DNA of 64,000 bases, taken from a virus. The stretch lies in the IMG/VR virus record IMGVR_UViG_3300037312_000927; one strand, given 5' to 3'. Position numbers and translations under genes: made by a program. Shown here in pieces: positions 349 to 6,601 of the stretch (positions are counted from its first letter, which is position 1; the number at the start of each line of letters is the position of its first letter). The notes below the pieces were generated by a model. That model did not search any database. It saw only the letters and a program-made list of their open reading frames with translations, and was not told the origin of the DNA.

Positions 349-402
349 TTCAAAGGTCCCTGATTCATTTCGGGGATTTTTTAGTTCAATAACTCAACTG
401 TA

Positions 403-413
403 TTTGGTATAAG
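403..413 (+). promoter_or_regulatory. early-type promoter motif TTTGGTATAAG
   Basis: Recurrent motif upstream of ORF 442; resembles extended -10 TGnTATAAT. Confidence 0.7.
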
Positions 414-441
414 AAAAGTATCTAAACATATTGAGGTTTTC

Positions 442-684
442 ATGGCTACGACTGTTAATGGTGTTACTTACATCCCCTTCCGTATCTTCGTTAGTGGTAC
501 CCAACACGAAATCTGGTTATCCGAAGCCACCCACGGGAGGGATCTAAGTTCTTGGTTTAGCGGAGATTACCCTCTGAGTGGATATCACATTGAACCGAAC
601 GGCAGGCATACTCAGTTAGGTTATCGTATCACCTTGGGTAGGCACGTCGGTGCCTCAGCAGTCGTGTATTACCCTGAGGATTAA
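442..684 (+). CDS. hypothetical protein (80 aa)
   Basis: GAGG RBS, own promoter motif and terminator. Confidence 0.7.
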   Translation: MATTVNGVTYIPFRIFVSGTQHEIWLSEATHGRDLSSWFSGDYPLSGYHIEPNGRHTQLGYRITLGRHVGASAVVYYPED

Positions 685-750
685 CCCTCAATAACTACTG
701 GTTAATTCTAGTAGTTTTTTAGCCATGAAAAATTCAATATTTTAGAGATC

Positions 751-761
751 TTTGGTATAAC
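751..761 (+). promoter_or_regulatory. early-type promoter motif (TTTGGTATAAC)
   Basis: Motif variant upstream of the Ubl gene. Confidence 0.65.
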
Positions 762-845
762 AATATTGTAAGGGAATGCATATATTATGCTGACTCTTAC
801 ACCCATCTTTTTACTAGTAAAACTTTAGCTAAGGAAACTAACCAT

Positions 846-1271
846 ATGACTACCGTCGCTCAAACCGTCCTGATCGTTACCTCGACCGACTCCGAATACA
901 CCGTCCCGGGCGACATGACCGCTGCTCAGCTGGTCACCGCTTACTCGTCGCAGATCCCGGGCCTGTCGAGCATGACCTCGACCGAGCGCTATGAACAACG
1001 TGCCATCGGCCAAGTCCGCATCGTCACGTTCAGCCCCCGCACGGGCACCAAGGGTTCGACAGGTCCGGTTGCTCAGACCGTCCTGATCGTCACGTCGACG
1101 GACTCGGAATACACGGTTCCGGGCGATATGACGGCTGCCCAACTGGTGACGGCTTATTCGAGCCAGATCCCGGGCCTGTCGAGCATGACCTCGACCGAGC
1201 GTTATGAACAGCGTTCGATCGGCCAGGTCCGTATCGTCACCTTCAGCCCCCGCACGGGCACCAAAGGCTAA
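846..1271 (+). CDS. tandem di-ubiquitin-like protein (two PRTRC protein C / Prok_Ub-like units, each ending TGTKG)
   Basis: Two ~67-aa units identical except one A/S, joined by STGP; C-terminal TKG typical of PRTRC-type Ubls; AAGGA RBS; adjacent E2/JAB/E1. Confidence 0.85.
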   Translation: MTTVAQTVLIVTSTDSEYTVPGDMTAAQLVTAYSSQIPGLSSMTSTERYEQRAIGQVRIVTFSPRTGTKGSTGPVAQTVLIVTSTDSEYTVPGDMTAAQLVTAYSSQIPGLSSMTSTERYEQRSIGQVRIVTFSPRTGTKG

Positions 1272-1287
1272 TCAGCCTTAAGTAGTG

Positions 1288-1322
1288 AAACAGCCAGGTT
1301 TCAACTTGGCTGTTTTTTTTAG
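1288..1322 (+). terminator. intrinsic terminator after Ubl gene
   Basis: AAACAGCCAGG/CTTGGCTGTTT stem then T-run + AG. Confidence 0.8.
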
Positions 1323-1345
1323 TTAACGTAACTTAGGGGAACACT

Positions 1346-2251
1346 ATGCAGAAAACACGAAGAGTGAACATCCTCAGTGGACTGACTCGTATCGTGGGTG
1401 AGATCCAGGCAGGCGTGAATAAGAAGTTTCAAGACTTCTATTTGAAATGTCTGCTTCAGCTCGGTTTGGTGACAAAGACGTTTAGCTATGATTTTGTGAT
1501 AGGGAATAATGGTTCCAGCTCCCATCGTAGATCGTTGAACAAACTCACCGGTCTCATTACAAAACAACTTCTGAAACTGAACCCGGCCGCAAACTTCGTG
1601 ACAGGGTCGTTTATTGATGGTAAACCCTCTGATCAATTTAAGATCAGTATCGGTGATACGGGATGGGTAAAGGATTACCCGTCATGGCGTCATGATAAGT
1701 TCGAGAAAATGAAGGCGAAGTTTCCGGAACTGTATGGTGACGCTCAAATAAACCATTTGTCTCTCGTTCACGGAACTTCCTTCGTAGAAATGTGGGCTCG
1801 TCTGAGCGACAAGTTCGGATGGGCGTATCGTTACTGCTCGTATCTAAACTATATGCTCAGAAAGCATTCAATCCCCCTACAAGCCAGTGTAGTGATCTCA
1901 GCGGATTCTGACTCTACCACGGACGAAAACGGGGTCAGGGTGCATCTATATAAACTCAATGCAACTATCATCTTCACTACAATGCAGTGGAGATGCAGGG
2001 ATTCCGACTCGGTAGCTCGGTATCGAGAAGTGCTCAACGGTGCGGAAGATGATTCACTTTTCTCAAATGATAACCTCTGGACTTCGGTTAATTTGCCCAA
2101 CAGCATTCGCCCAGGTTCGAGCAATTTCATCTATCGGAAGTTCCACATCAGTAAGGTGTTCATGCACCTGGATAAATCCCTGAAGATTTTGGAAACCTTA
2201 CTTAGGAAGGCAGATTATGGTGTTGGAGCATATACTCTCAGAGCTGAATAA
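1346..2251 (+). CDS. hypothetical protein within Ubl cassette (301 aa)
   Basis: Long ORF with GGGGA RBS between Ubl and E2; no motif recognised. Confidence 0.7.
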   Translation: MQKTRRVNILSGLTRIVGEIQAGVNKKFQDFYLKCLLQLGLVTKTFSYDFVIGNNGSSSHRRSLNKLTGLITKQLLKLNPAANFVTGSFIDGKPSDQFKISIGDTGWVKDYPSWRHDKFEKMKAKFPELYGDAQINHLSLVHGTSFVEMWARLSDKFGWAYRYCSYLNYMLRKHSIPLQASVVISADSDSTTDENGVRVHLYKLNATIIFTTMQWRCRDSDSVARYREVLNGAEDDSLFSNDNLWTSVNLPNSIRPGSSNFIYRKFHISKVFMHLDKSLKILETLLRKADYGVGAYTLRAE

Positions 2252-2480
2252 TTCGGTTTCCATCTCGGAACCTTATGAAAAGCTGTACAATCGGCACATC
2301 GCATTGGGACCCATTGTGGACGAGGAAAGCCTCGATGACCTAATCGATTTTGCCTGTGAGGCCCTGAATTTTAAAGGGTCAGATAATCTCCCCATTGTTG
2401 ATCTGAAGCTCATTGGGGTTCAGATCAAAGTTGCAAGAACTTTCATTAACACTGATTCTGAAGAGGACTTTTTCATATGA
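2217..2480 (+). CDS. hypothetical protein within Ubl cassette (87 aa)
   Basis: Overlaps both neighbours (ATGA coupling with the E2 gene). Confidence 0.6.
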   Translation: MVLEHILSELNNSVSISEPYEKLYNRHIALGPIVDEESLDDLIDFACEALNFKGSDNLPIVDLKLIGVQIKVARTFINTDSEEDFFI

Positions 2481-3337
2481 ACGAAACCGAAACTATGGAA
2501 GCAGTTCAGCTTACCCCAATCGTCCAGGAAACTGAACCGGCAGCCGCTCCAGCAGTCCCGACTTTCGAACAAGCCGTGGAGGCTCAAGCCGGAGGTGCCT
2601 CTACGGTCGATGTTCTGAAACTGGAACTATTCAAAGACTACGCTGAAATCGACATGGGCAACAAGATCAAGAAGCAGATCTCCCATGAGACGCTACGAGA
2701 CATACTGAACAAAACCCTGAACACGGCTCAGCCCCAATCGGAAACGATTAAAGGTATGCTGATGCCGAGTAATGTGTTCTTCATGAGTCAGACGGCTAAC
2801 CGCCTCCATTTCAATACGTATTATTCCGGTGGTAAACGTAATATGTTGTACGGTGAACGCAAGATGGAAATCATGGCGCCGAACATCATCATCTCGTTTA
2901 CCCTCCGTAAGGATGGTTCGGACTGGATCATCGATTCTGAAGCTACGAAATACTTCTGTACCGATCTTCCGCTGAACAAACTGCCGAAGGACTTCATCAA
3001 CCAGATCAGTCATAAAGATGGTATCTATCTTCTTCCGATGAGTAACACCTATGACGAAGGTAAGATGTGCTACGGCAGTAACTCGATGCCTGCACGTTTT
3101 AAGGATAACAACTTCCGTGGCCTGGACTGGTATTTCCGCTATCTGTGGGAGACGCCGTTCAACAGCGATCTGGGCATTCGTGCGGTAGGTTCGATCGGAG
3201 TCAGTGATTGGTACGATCTTCTGGCTCGTACGGCTAAGGATAATAAGACCTTCCCGTACCGTGATCTGCGTGGCTGGAGAGAGATTGATGGTGCCATCCC
3301 TAGCACCTCAGAACTCGGCCGTGGCCGTGATCGCTAA
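2477..3337 (+). CDS. prokaryotic E2 family D-like protein (PRTRC protein B-like)
   Basis: LPMSNTYDEGKMCYGSN and LWETPFNSDL match the P-x-x-N-x-Y-x-x-G-x-x-C-W/Y-G ... F-N/S pattern; context with JAB and ThiF. Confidence 0.75.
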   Translation: MNETETMEAVQLTPIVQETEPAAAPAVPTFEQAVEAQAGGASTVDVLKLELFKDYAEIDMGNKIKKQISHETLRDILNKTLNTAQPQSETIKGMLMPSNVFFMSQTANRLHFNTYYSGGKRNMLYGERKMEIMAPNIIISFTLRKDGSDWIIDSEATKYFCTDLPLNKLPKDFINQISHKDGIYLLPMSNTYDEGKMCYGSNSMPARFKDNNFRGLDWYFRYLWETPFNSDLGIRAVGSIGVSDWYDLLARTAKDNKTFPYRDLRGWREIDGAIPSTSELGRGRDR

Positions 3338-3351
3338 ATAAAACGTAGTAT

Positions 3352-3362
3352 TTTGGTATAAG
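3352..3362 (+). promoter_or_regulatory. early-type promoter motif TTTGGTATAAG
   Basis: Upstream of JAB gene, followed by an 8-bp hairpin. Confidence 0.7.
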
Positions 3363-3419
3363 AGCTAGGAGATGACCTCTCCTAGTTAATTTTAGTTAAC
3401 CCTTTATTTTGGAAAAATT

Positions 3420-4745
3420 ATGCACATTTTAGCACCTTCGATGAGCTGCATCTGCTTCCCTGGCGAAGTGCAAGACGCTATGGCACAAGGTTACAAACAA
3501 ATCTACGTTGCCACGACGCAAGGCATCTTCAAACATCACATCCTTCGTGGCGAGGGTCGCTATGTCCGTGTGAAGGTCGATAAAATCCCGGGCTACGAAG
3601 AGCCGAAGATCGAAGAAGCCATGAACTTCCTGCCGGCTGGTAAGGTCCCGTACGAACTGTACGAGCAAATTCTGGCCTTCTTCAAGAAAGTCATGGAAGT
3701 GAACACCTCGGAAGTCGAGGCAATGATTCACGTGCTGTACAATCCTGAGCAAGGTTATCACCTGGGCGTTCCTCCTCAGAAAATCAGCAAGGCAAGCGTA
3801 AGCTATGACTGGAACTACGTTCCGGCTGGCACGAGTATCGTGGTTGACATTCACAGCCACAATACGATGGGAGCCTTCTTCAGCGGCACCGACAACCGTG
3901 ACGATGCCCACAACATTTCGTACTCGGGTGTCTTCGGGAAGCTGAAAGATGCGGAACCTATGACTGTGTGGCGTTTCAACTACATGGACAAGAAATACGA
4001 GGCGAAAGCGTCCGATATTTTTGATACTCCCGCACGACCGGAAGTAGAGGTTCCTAAAGAATGGCTGGACAACGTTAAAGTGGAATCGTATCAATCCCAC
4101 TATAACGGAGGTTACAGTAACCGGGGAAACGTCGGAAAGTGGCAGGGTCACTCCGTGAGTGGTCCGAGCAATACTACCCTGACGAAGAACTCGTTACCAC
4201 AGGCAAAAAACGTAAGCCAAACCGTAAACAACAACGGAAAGGTAAATGAGGCTGTTTATTATCCCGGTCAAGATGAACTCGGGCTGGAAGGAGGTGGGTT
4301 CAACAGCTGGTCTGACGACGAGCTCGAAGACTACTTTCGTAACATTGGCCGGCGCGGTGTTTCTCATGCGTATGGAGTTAACGAAGCTCGGGGTATCATT
4401 CTTCCCGACGATGTTCCCGATCCGAATACTACCGTAACGGAAGATCCGGAGGCTGACACCTTGGGAAAGTCGAAGGGGGAGGGAGTGACCCCAAACAGCA
4501 TCATCTCCACTGATCCTGCTTACCTTGCCACGGCTGTCAAGTATGGTACTGACGTTGCTGATGCCTGGTATGATATCGGCAATTTGATGTGCAACCTCGA
4601 AGGTAAAGATGAACTTCTTAGTGAACTGATCCAAGATATGTTCGGTTTGACTTCCCCTTCCGAGCAACTCAAGGTTCTGCACTTGATGTACGATAACATG
4701 GATCCGGCCAGCCGGGAGAAGTTGGAAACCCAAGGGTTTGCTTAA
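3420..4745 (+). CDS. JAB/MPN metalloprotease (PRTRC protein A-like) with long C-terminal extension
   Basis: EAM ... VDIHSHNTMGAFFSGTDNRDD = JAB E...HSH-x7-S-x2-D motif. Confidence 0.85.
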   Translation: MHILAPSMSCICFPGEVQDAMAQGYKQIYVATTQGIFKHHILRGEGRYVRVKVDKIPGYEEPKIEEAMNFLPAGKVPYELYEQILAFFKKVMEVNTSEVEAMIHVLYNPEQGYHLGVPPQKISKASVSYDWNYVPAGTSIVVDIHSHNTMGAFFSGTDNRDDAHNISYSGVFGKLKDAEPMTVWRFNYMDKKYEAKASDIFDTPARPEVEVPKEWLDNVKVESYQSHYNGGYSNRGNVGKWQGHSVSGPSNTTLTKNSLPQAKNVSQTVNNNGKVNEAVYYPGQDELGLEGGGFNSWSDDELEDYFRNIGRRGVSHAYGVNEARGIILPDDVPDPNTTVTEDPEADTLGKSKGEGVTPNSIISTDPAYLATAVKYGTDVADAWYDIGNLMCNLEGKDELLSELIQDMFGLTSPSEQLKVLHLMYDNMDPASREKLETQGFA

Positions 4746-4795
4746 TAATCAATGTGAGGCGGGGTTCCCGCCCCGCTTCATTTGAAAGGATTTAA

Positions 4796-6154
4796 ATGTT
4801 TAGCTTTACCTCTAGCATAATTCCGAATAACGTCTTCGTTATCGGTGCGGGTGGAACAGGTGGTCGCTTGATCCCCTTGCTCAGCCAGTTCATGCGAAGC
4901 ATTACTCGTGGGGTGAGCCCTATGGGTTGGCTGGAATCTCCTAGAATCTGGCTGATCGATGACGACGTTGTGGAGCAGAAGAACTTGCTTCGTCAAAACT
5001 TCATTGACCGTGACGTCGGCAAGTACAAGGCTGCAGTTCTGGCCGAACGTTACACTCGGGCTTACAACGTTCCGGTGATCCCGATCATTCGTCGTATCGA
5101 AACGGGTTCGGCCCAAGAGTTCTACAAAGATGTGAACGACAACCTGTTCGTCATGAACGGTAACATCGACACGGTGAAGTTTAACAACATCATCGGCAGC
5201 AGTGTCGTCATCATCTGCGTCGACTCGGTCGAAGCACGTCGAGATATCCTGAACGTGTTTGTCACCGGCGATCAGCCTAATAAGACTATCTTCATCGATG
5301 CTGGTAACGAAGATAGTTTCGGCCAGGTGAGTTTCTTCACCTCATCGATTCTGCTTAGCCACAAGACGACCAGTGCAGCCCAGGAAATTCCGAAGCTGTG
5401 TCCGGTGTCAGCTGACGTTGATTTCATCCCGATCGACGTGGACTACTACCGGGGCCTGGTGGACACGCCGGCTCAAGGTAGCTGTGCGGATCTGAATCAA
5501 ACCCTGGCGATCAATGCTATCATGGCAACGACGATTATGGGCGTGGTGCAGAACTGCTTCTACCGTAAGCCTATGACCTATAACAAGGTCAGTATCAGTC
5601 TGGACGGGGGTAATCACACGACGTACAACACGTTCAACAATCTCAACAATGCCGGCATCTCTAAAGAGACCTGGCATAATGGGCGTAACGGGAGTCTGTA
5701 TTCCGAAGAACGTGAAGGTCGTCGGAAGTGTCTGGGGTTCGTCGGTCGAGCTCAGACACACGAGGCACGTGATCTGCGACAGACTCTTCTGGATAAGATG
5801 GAAGAGATCAATCGTCAGGCTGAACTGGCACGCCGTAAGGCTGCTGAGGAAGCTGAACGGGCAGCAGAGCAAGCTCGTATCAAGATCGTTGCCGATCGTA
5901 AGCGTGAAGAGATCCGTCGTATGGTAGAGGCGGCTCGTCAAGCACGGGAGACTCCGGTTGCCCCGACCTTGGCTGATGCAGTAGCGGTTGTGGCTAGTGC
6001 GGCAAGTGTTGTTGAGGTCCCGGCAGCTCCTCCTCCGCTGACTCCGGTTCGTCAACGTACCCGCCGAGTTGTAGAACTTGCTTTACCTCCCGCTGATGCA
6101 TATGTGGAGGGTGACGAGGACGACAACGAAGTGGATGAAGACGATCCTTATTAA
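4796..6154 (+). CDS. ThiF/E1-like activating enzyme (PRTRC ThiF-like) with coiled-coil/acidic tail
   Basis: IGAGGTGG, DDDVVEQKNLLRQNF, CVDS, DAGN, candidate catalytic Cys in QGSCADL, QTLAIN. Confidence 0.9.
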   Translation: MFSFTSSIIPNNVFVIGAGGTGGRLIPLLSQFMRSITRGVSPMGWLESPRIWLIDDDVVEQKNLLRQNFIDRDVGKYKAAVLAERYTRAYNVPVIPIIRRIETGSAQEFYKDVNDNLFVMNGNIDTVKFNNIIGSSVVIICVDSVEARRDILNVFVTGDQPNKTIFIDAGNEDSFGQVSFFTSSILLSHKTTSAAQEIPKLCPVSADVDFIPIDVDYYRGLVDTPAQGSCADLNQTLAINAIMATTIMGVVQNCFYRKPMTYNKVSISLDGGNHTTYNTFNNLNNAGISKETWHNGRNGSLYSEEREGRRKCLGFVGRAQTHEARDLRQTLLDKMEEINRQAELARRKAAEEAERAAEQARIKIVADRKREEIRRMVEAARQARETPVAPTLADAVAVVASAASVVEVPAAPPPLTPVRQRTRRVVELALPPADAYVEGDEDDNEVDEDDPY

Positions 6155-6156
6155 TG

Positions 6157-6191
6157 AAAAACCCAGGTTTCTATGCCTGGGTTTTTTTTAG
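6157..6191 (+). terminator. intrinsic (probably bidirectional) terminator
   Basis: AAAAACCCAGG/CCTGGGTTTTT stem between convergent genes. Confidence 0.8.
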
Positions 6192-6193
6192 CT

Positions 6194-6601
6194 TTACGAA
6201 GTCCGTTCTCGACTTGCAGTAGTCAAATTTTCCACTACATCAAAACTTGCTAAAGGAGTACCGTCTTGTCTAATCATATCCAACTTACCAAGTTGTTTAT
6301 CCCAAATCCAGCTGCCTAAGGCTTCATCTTCAAGATTTTTAAGAGAAGAATATATGCTCTTAGTAACCACTTCGATAAACGCTACTAAGTTATTGTTAAA
6401 GATGACACATTGACGACCTGTTATAGTAGGGTTGTATGTGACAATATAAATACCTGGGGTTGAAGATTCTACTACCGTAGTAGTAGCACTATCTACTACA
6501 GTGCCGTTATTAAGAACTGTTAACCCTGGATTAACCAATCCTGGATCGGCTTGGAAGTAGAGTTTTATAGTTTCGTTTATGGTTGCACTTGTATTAATCA
6601 T
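6194..6601 (-). CDS. hypothetical, probable virion protein
   Basis: Beta-rich 135-aa ORF ending a coupled minus-strand operon. Confidence 0.6.
   Translation of the reverse strand: MINTSATINETIKLYFQADPGLVNPGLTVLNNGTVVDSATTTVVESSTPGIYIVTYNPTITGRQCVIFNNNLVAFIEVVTKSIYSSLKNLEDEALGSWIWDKQLGKLDMIRQDGTPLASFDVVENLTTASRERTS

Follow-up and report, generated by a model that had tools for sequence, protein, structure and literature searches.

Tandem ubiquitin-like units in a conserved phage cassette: a possible viral counterpart of polyubiquitin genes

An uncultured phage with a large genome was found to carry a gene for two near-identical, head-to-tail ubiquitin-like (Ubl) units, and we consider it somewhat probable that its product is a polyubiquitin-like precursor. 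In this reading, the JAB metallopeptidase of the same gene cassette would cut after each Lys-Gly (KG) end to release a phage Ubl modifier, with the cleavage itself being inferred. The repeat, its pattern of selection, the predicted fold, the cassette, the variable number of units in relatives and the conservation of the unit ends were all computed.

The window analysed, a stretch of 64,000 nt, is the minus strand of G000:C1:22566-86565 and comes from a 184,920-bp IMG/VR virus record with a completeness rating of 100%; the features of the gene and cassette are located on it in Table 1. Tandem Repeats Finder placed the array of the poly-Ubl gene at 858-1264 (period 213, 1.9 copies, 87% matches, no indels, score 646). 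Compared over 67 aligned codons (855-1055 against 1068-1268), the two units were 98% identical in protein, with a single amino-acid difference (A53/S124), and differed at 27 of 201 bases, 2, 1 and 24 of these falling at codon positions 1, 2 and 3, respectively. A preliminary description of this DNA had reported one Ala/Ser difference, many third-position differences (ACC/ACG, GAC/GAT, TAC/TAT and TCG/AGC, each of which was found) and units that both end in SPRTGTKG and are linked by STGP, and all of these readings held in the alignment and translation. Its further claim of strong purifying selection, for which it proposed a dN/dS comparison of the units, was borne out: the Nei-Gojobori method gave 23.5 synonymous differences (Sd) in 53 sites and 3.5 non-synonymous differences (Nd) in 148 sites (dS 0.67, dN 0.024, omega 0.036), with a neutrality probability of P = 3e-10 for so few non-synonymous changes. 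The third-position pattern identifies the plus frame as the coding frame of 846-1271 and, together with the high GC of the gene (62%), marks a 105-aa antisense ORF at 825-1142 as a by-product. Gene calls on 9 contigs gave the identical 141-aa protein, which rules out an assembly artefact as the source of the repeat.

Table 1. Positions of the poly-Ubl gene, its expression signals and the cassette genes in the window.
Feature	Position	Strand	Remarks
Promoter-like motif TTTGGTATAA	751..760	+	86 nt 5' of the Ubl start codon; promoter function inferred
Shine-Dalgarno-like AAGGA	831..835	+	10 nt 5' of the ATG at 846; direct sequence reading
Poly-Ubl gene	846..1271	+	ORF, 141 aa, two head-to-tail predicted beta-grasp units
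Unit 1 (M1-G70), TGTKG end	846..1055	+	Predicted cut after G70, bases 1055/1056 (inferred)
Joint STGP (aa 71-74)	1056..1067	+	Counterpart of the MTT leader of unit 1
Unit 2 (V75-G141)	1068..1268	+	TGTKG end abuts the stop codon
Terminator-like hairpin, 13 pairs + T-run	1287..1316	+	Directly 3' of the Ubl gene
301-aa cassette protein	1346..2251	+	No Pfam, NCBIfam or PHROG match
87-aa cassette protein	2217..2480	+	End overlaps E2 start; no Pfam, NCBIfam or PHROG match
E2-like protein, Prok-E2_D	2477..3337	+	PF14460, 27.1 bits (cutoff 25)
Second TTTGGTATAA motif	3352..3361	+	5' of the JAB gene
JAB/JAMM metallopeptidase	3420..4745	+	PF14464, 34.7 bits; PRTRC_A E 1e-18
ThiF-type E1-like adenylating enzyme	4796..6154	+	PF00899, 45.2 bits; PRTRC_ThiF E 3e-23
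Terminator-like hairpin closing the cassette	6156..6187	+	Hairpin search

An AlphaFold2 (AF2) model of the di-Ubl, built on a 33-sequence alignment (pLDDT 87 overall), contained two b-b-a-b-b domains (pLDDT ~90 each) separated by a disordered joint at residues 67-72 (pLDDT < 50), and its pTM was 0.48; with such a joint and so low a pTM, no fixed interface or orientation between the two Ubl domains is predicted. The best Foldseek matches of the model in the PDB were linear di-ubiquitin (E 8e-4), ISG15 and FAT10, and VIA-align of the separate domains gave modest and tied scores for protein G B1 (Z 5.6, rmsd 2.0, 51 aligned), MoaD (Z 5.0) and ubiquitin (Z 4.8). Though modest, these scores are consistent with each modelled unit being a minimal four-strand beta-grasp. 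Searched alone, the window protein matched no Pfam family at E <= 0.1, neither Prok_Ub nor the Pfam ubiquitin family; PF14454 Prok_Ub was matched by 19 of the 33 aligned homologs at E <= 0.01 (best 2.2e-8). The C-terminal Gly of the units (G70 and G141) is invariant and the neighbourhood of E1, E2 and JAB genes is kept in 17 loci, both as required of a Prok_Ub protein. Judged by these profile matches, the poly-Ubl family appears to be a divergent, phage-borne branch of Prok_Ub, to which the window protein is linked through its relatives.

The gene order Ubl(n), ~300 aa, ~86 aa, E2, JAB, E1 was constant in 17 loci including the window, whatever the unit number, with some of the contigs in this comparison stopping before the last cassette genes. 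The E2-like protein has an invariant candidate catalytic residue, C198, together with N190, Y192, G200 and N202, in 17 orthologs. The JAB protein, a candidate for both the processing and the deconjugating enzyme, has a complete JAMM motif with E100, H145, S146, H147, S155 and D158 invariant in 12 orthologs, and in 12 orthologs of the E1-like protein G17-x-G-G-T-G22, D143 and C230 are invariant. The 301-aa protein keeps its position in 16 loci, where its sequences are merely 14-31% identical, and its AF2 model (pLDDT 77, mixed alpha/beta) had no fold match in the PDB (best Foldseek E 0.028; best Z 4.5 in a wide VIA-align search); it could be an adaptor, an E3-like factor or a substrate. An ORF of 84-98 aa fills the slot of the 87-aa protein in 16 of 17 loci, and the remaining locus, L014, has 153 aa there.

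Upstream of the cassette lies the large terminase gene, in divergent orientation, and few of the other neighbours are annotated. A 379-aa ORF (L031:1063-2202, G000:C1:87462-88601), situated just outside the window on its upstream side, adjoins the terminase gene and probably encodes a homing endonuclease, as its equivalent on the contig of P0002, the closest homolog, has a GIY-YIG domain. The expected JAB slot contained two ORFs, of 156-165 and 278-283 aa, in three loci (L009:10263-12705, L016:7885-10364 and L021:4345-5733), separated by ~1.1 kb in L009 and L016, and an HNH/AP2 endonuclease ORF was observed between the JAB and E1 genes at L030:11854-12378. The split JAB slots and the HNH/AP2 ORF may possibly represent mobile insertions in the cassette.

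The class 6d operon described by Iyer, Burroughs and Aravind (2006; PMC1779556) comprises a Ubl, an unknown protein that evolves fast, an E2-like protein, a JAB extended by an N-terminal domain and an E1-like protein. The phage cassette shares these class 6d/PRTRC parts, namely a Gly-ended Ubl, a fast-evolving unknown, an E2-like protein with its Cys, an N-extended JAB and an E1-like protein. Class 6d is the PRTRC type (NCBIfam TIGR03735-03737; Pfam Prok_Ub, Prok-E2_D and Prok-JAB), and the phage cassette is of that type. The PRTRC bit scores all lay far below the curated cutoffs (PRTRC_A 67.2 against 101.8, PRTRC_B 16.7 against 131.45, PRTRC_ThiF 82.4 against 144.75), and by this measure the cassette is a relative of PRTRC and not a member. 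Whereas the class 6d/PRTRC sets are found on plasmids or ICEs and class 6d was described with a single stand-alone Ubl, the phage cassette is found in ~180-kb phages with 1-5 tandem Ubl units. Iyer et al. described 'polyUbl' proteins in another operon class, 6e (PMC1779556).

The 10-mer TTTGGTATAA occurred 17 times in the window against 0.28 expected, a count that was reached by no shuffle, with sites at 403-412, 751-760, 3352-3361, 13421-13430 and 13 other positions, mostly shortly 5' of genes. It is probably the phage's own promoter element, resembling an extended -10, with promoter function being inferred. The copy at 403-412 belongs to an 80-aa ORF (442-684) that lies directly 5' of the Ubl gene, has no family and is followed by a possible hairpin and T-run; ORFs of 80-92 aa occupy the matching slot in the close relatives L025 and L026 and in the P0002 contig. 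A hairpin with a T-run was present 3' of the Ubl gene in 14 of 14 loci (the window and 13 relatives). The GC3 of the Ubl gene, 0.77, ranked second among 265 ORFs of the genome (median 0.44), and its GC was above that of the flanks in 9 of 9 loci measured, with GC3 clearly raised in most. Together, its own promoter motif, the terminator and the high GC3 suggest by inference that the Ubl gene is separately and strongly expressed.

The other strongest GC3 outliers both lie outside the window: L033 (G000:C1:149201-151309), which encodes a 702-aa classic-clade AAA ATPase (PF00004) with ~400 N-terminal residues unassigned, and L034 (G000:C1:138127-140001), which encodes a nicotinamide phosphoribosyltransferase (NAMPT). 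An AAA unfoldase in a phage that has a Ubl system of its own may merit attention. With an AAA ATPase and NAMPT in the high-GC3 set, codon bias alone is no proof of high expression, and the idea that these are structural genes was rejected, as the set contains no recognisable virion genes. Recent horizontal transfer as the source of the high GC of the Ubl gene is also unlikely, the gene and its synteny being ancestral to the group and the GC excess over the flanks recurring in all nine loci.

When the search was restricted by length, 36 homologs were returned, most of them with two units and 129-149 aa long. Without that restriction, 1.8 billion cluster representatives yielded 53 matches; single units of 64-73 aa made up most of these, alongside seven proteins with two units, one with five (P0047) and P0073, in which one unit carries a C-terminal extension of 134 aa. 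Three-unit forms were found twice, in P0084 and in a 263-aa protein of the cultured Vibrio phages D69, D148 and D181. Another protein, P0070 (1011 aa, 6 stretches), was rejected as a multi-unit Ubl, being a low-complexity false positive. Megablast of window positions 400-6200 against deposited phages gave no match, and scanning viral contigs with the single Ubl sequence gave nothing; the loci were found by alignment-based scans. In D69 (OZ195729.1), one of these ~187-kb Vibrio phages, the protein encoded by the poly-Ubl gene at L042:6956-7747 has a long acidic spacer, and its last KG is followed by an INYSK tail; 3' of the gene lie ORFs of 233, 95, 229, 356 and 251 aa that resemble the cassette genes in size and are all annotated as hypothetical.

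The preliminary description had proposed counting units in related phages and had held that single units alone, with no sign of selection on the copy, would speak against it. Relatives with the same cassette were found to have 1, 2, 3 or 5 units, and omega between units of one gene was 0-0.17, so that this outcome was not observed. On a tree of first units, the unit number required 12-14 changes (ML tree), at least five of them on well supported branches, and 21 of the 24 tree genes in the window's own clade had exactly two units. A clean single-unit gene, L043:3128-3325, has a product that matches unit 1 of P0031, a two-unit protein, at every residue, which means that very close relatives differ in unit number.

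The unit ends were the most constant part of this variable architecture, with T66, G67, T68, K69 and G70 and likewise T137-G141 invariant in 33 of 33 aligned two-unit proteins and [NA][RK]TGTKG retained in every unit of the three- and five-unit forms. The joint between units was variable in two-unit genes (0-5 residues) and longer in three- and five-unit genes, and the residue following KG was Ala in 36 of 55 cases. Beyond the last KG, 11 of 84 proteins carried 1-6 extra residues or the 134-aa extension, which implies that C-terminal trimming must already belong to the pathway. Tandem complete units, each with a reactive C-terminal motif and in variable number, meet the criteria for a polyubiquitin-type architecture.

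Units of one gene were far more alike than units of different genes (median identity 96%, range 73-100%, against a median of 52%, range 28-98%), and for 57 of 76 units the nearest unit was the partner in the same gene. In every gene for which DNA was available, dS between partner units was 0.6-2.5, and in more than 10 two-unit genes the protein identity of the units was 83-100%, yet their synonymous sites were near randomised. When the synonymous codons of each gene were re-dealt for 20 unit pairs, most pairs could not be distinguished from full randomisation, with three pairs, and more weakly the window, retaining residual similarity; in L029, for example, 63 of 63 residues were identical and 32 of 61 degenerate codons differed against 29 expected. 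Active avoidance of shared codons was rejected, as the number of differing codons was never above the random re-deal in the 20 pairs, and so was an always-homogenised stretch, codon identity being 0.51-0.66 along the entire unit.

Comparisons between close genes gave a more detailed picture of these changes. Between L004 and L018, dS was 0.37 for unit 1 against unit 1 and 0.85 for unit 2 against unit 2, compared with 1.4-1.5 within a gene, and between P0016 and P0018 it was 0.81 for unit 1 against unit 1, compared with 1.61 within P0016; as units in the same position are closer at synonymous sites, the two-unit state predates both splits. Between distant clades this positional signal was lost (70 against 54 pairs, 524 ties). 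Amino-acid changes were nevertheless found in both units at once: all six differences between P0016 and P0018 occur in both, some by multi-base codon changes such as TCT to AGC that resemble conversion patches; S37N between P0005 and P0004 is in both units; and T21S in L018 is in both, each with its own third base (TCG and TCC), which resembles parallel change. Likewise P0002, 92% identical to the window Ubl, has two substitutions relative to it that are common to both units. On these sequence patterns we conclude that the units evolve in concert on top of strong purifying selection, with repeated gain and loss of units, conversion and parallel selection not being resolved. The earlier picture of an old duplication under purifying selection was therefore right about the selection and incomplete about the history, since changes have spread to both units and the unit number has been repeatedly altered.

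In the mechanism that we propose, the Ubl gene would be transcribed from its own promoter motif (751), with transcription mostly stopped at the terminator (1287-1316), an arrangement that would yield more of the tag than of the enzymes encoded downstream. The 141-aa product would form two independent beta-grasp beads on a flexible joint, and JAB would cut it after Gly70 (TGTKG|STGP) into two monomers that differ at one core residue and in their short N-terminal leaders, each with a free C-terminal Gly. The ThiF-type E1 would adenylate this Gly, and the tag would then be transferred to the E2-like protein, at Cys198, and from there to targets not yet identified, from which JAB could probably also remove it. 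Two units would double the output per mRNA; since both must work with the same E1, E2, JAB and targets, selection would keep their protein sequences identical, and their DNA would be allowed, or favoured, to drift apart. Cleavage, the enzyme responsible for it, conjugation and the dosage role are all inferences without biochemical evidence.

Several results favour a cut precursor, which the preliminary description had proposed alongside a linear di-Ubl conjugated as a unit, as far as sequence comparison can do so. Every unit is complete and has the activatable TGTKG end at internal as well as terminal positions, the unit number is interchangeable (1, 2, 3 or 5) inside one conserved cassette, and the near identity of units within a gene, set against diverged orthologs, fits two copies of one product. 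The C-terminal tails, the disordered joint, the catalytic-type residues kept in JAB, E2 and E1 and the signs that the Ubl gene is strongly and separately expressed also favour it. Counting against it are the modest fold scores of the single domains and the lack of a Prok_Ub match for the window protein itself. BilC, the JAB of a related bacterial operon, cuts a linear Ubl-GFP fusion after a conserved Gly (10.1101/2023.09.26.559546) and offers a precedent, by analogy, for the cassette JAB doing likewise. A predicted complex of JAB residues 1-225 with Zn and the di-Ubl (score 0.14, mark 0.32) gave neither support nor counter-evidence.

It is also conceivable that the product stays uncut as a linear di-Ubl similar to ISG15, FAT10 or BilA, activated at Gly141 only and attached as one two-domain tag, and the dominance of exactly two units in the window's clade could mean that the pair itself is functional. 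The appearance of ISG15 and FAT10 among the Foldseek matches points the same way. In ISG15 and FAT10, however, the domains have diverged and the reactive end is on the last domain only, a criterion shared with BilA-BubA that the window protein does not meet, as both of its units have TGTKG and are 98% identical. Conjugation of intact two-domain Ubls is known from Type I Bil and Bub operons (PMC11601603); against this, the first phage domain keeps its full TGTKG end without exception and is near-identical to the second, one-, three- and five-unit forms occupy the same cassette, and the AF2 model has no fixed domain interface. We regard whole conjugation of an uncut di-Ubl as unlikely, less likely than the cut precursor, without being able to exclude it.

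Single-unit genes that end at KG bear on which enzyme would cut, because they need no processing yet keep JAB, so that the core job of JAB may be deconjugation and precursor cutting is not what holds it in the cassette. This leaves room for a host protease, or another phage protease, to cut after each KG while JAB acts on isopeptide conjugates only, which seems improbable to us given that family searches and comparison of the loci found no other conserved peptidase in the cassette and that the Bil precedent is of one JAB doing both jobs. We would give even less weight to the protein not being a conjugated tag at all, whether as an abundant repeat protein with a structural or scaffolding role or as a sulfur carrier of the ThiS/MoaD kind with E1-like neighbours by chance. 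Such a role could account for three observations: the cassette adjoins the large terminase gene and unannotated genes that are possibly structural, the codon bias suggests abundance, and MoaD is among the fold matches. It fits poorly with the constant presence of a JAB and of an E2-like protein whose Cys is invariant, with the lack of sulfur-transfer or cofactor genes in the cassette, and with the relation of the family to Prok_Ub.

In design, the gene resembles the eukaryotic polyubiquitin genes (UBB/UBC, UBI4), which, as in the phage, have head-to-tail units with no real spacer and an activatable Gly ending each, vary in unit number and in some cases carry extra residues beyond the last unit. 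In both, the units are near-identical in protein with many synonymous differences and signs of concerted evolution, and release by a deubiquitinase (DUB) is the presumed mechanism. Unlike ubiquitin, which is almost invariant and ends in RGG, the phage unit is a predicted minimal four-strand beta-grasp with a KG end, has no detectable sequence relation to ubiquitin and varies widely (median 52% identity between phages), and the JAMM enzyme that is its putative DUB is encoded next to the tag gene. The Bil/Bub operons (BilA-D; Chambers et al., 10.1101/2023.09.26.559546; Gong et al., PMC11601603) also combine a Ubl with E1, E2 and a JAB DUB, which pre-processes the Ubl by a peptide-bond cut after a conserved Gly, and their Ubls have 1-3 beta-grasp domains; their enzymes, by contrast, are of other Pfam families, for example with Prok-E2_C on the E1, and they belong to the host, as anti-phage or stress systems, and not to phages. 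In the three-domain Ubl3 of Bub, the first two domains mediate dimer and filament assembly (Gong et al., PMC11601603), distinct roles which mean that they are not repeated copies of one unit, unlike the phage units.

Taken jointly, the observations raise the possibility, which we put forward only tentatively and with more doubt than belief, that large phages carry a polyubiquitin system of their own, the plan of polyubiquitin genes having been re-invented independently in viruses. Such a system might consist of a strongly expressed gene whose 1-5 units are released by JAB, the unit number acting as a dosage dial; protein identity might be under selection, with changes reaching both units by patchy conversion or parallel substitution; and synonymous sites might be driven apart, shielding the repeat from recombinational collapse. 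None of these elements is excluded.

A literature search found no description of phage-encoded Ubl cassettes or of Prok_Ub poly-units, and what is new here is the evidence for a precursor together with the evolutionary pattern of the units, namely concerted evolution over randomised synonymous sites. To our knowledge, the ubiquitin-like conjugation systems characterised so far in the bacterial world serve the host as a defence against phages (Bil, Bub, CBASS Cap2). In the present case it is the phage that owns a complete conjugation kit, with a tag gene that has the hallmark architecture of eukaryotic polyubiquitin. With a three-unit version present in Vibrio phages that are in culture (D69, D148 and D181), the question can be tested directly, and these phages could serve as a laboratory system. 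If the precursor model is true, poly-tag genes processed by DUBs would have evolved more than once, the family would offer a small and tractable example of concerted evolution in which the protein stays identical over codons that are scrambled, and phages would turn out to invest heavily in tagging something, be it host or phage proteins.
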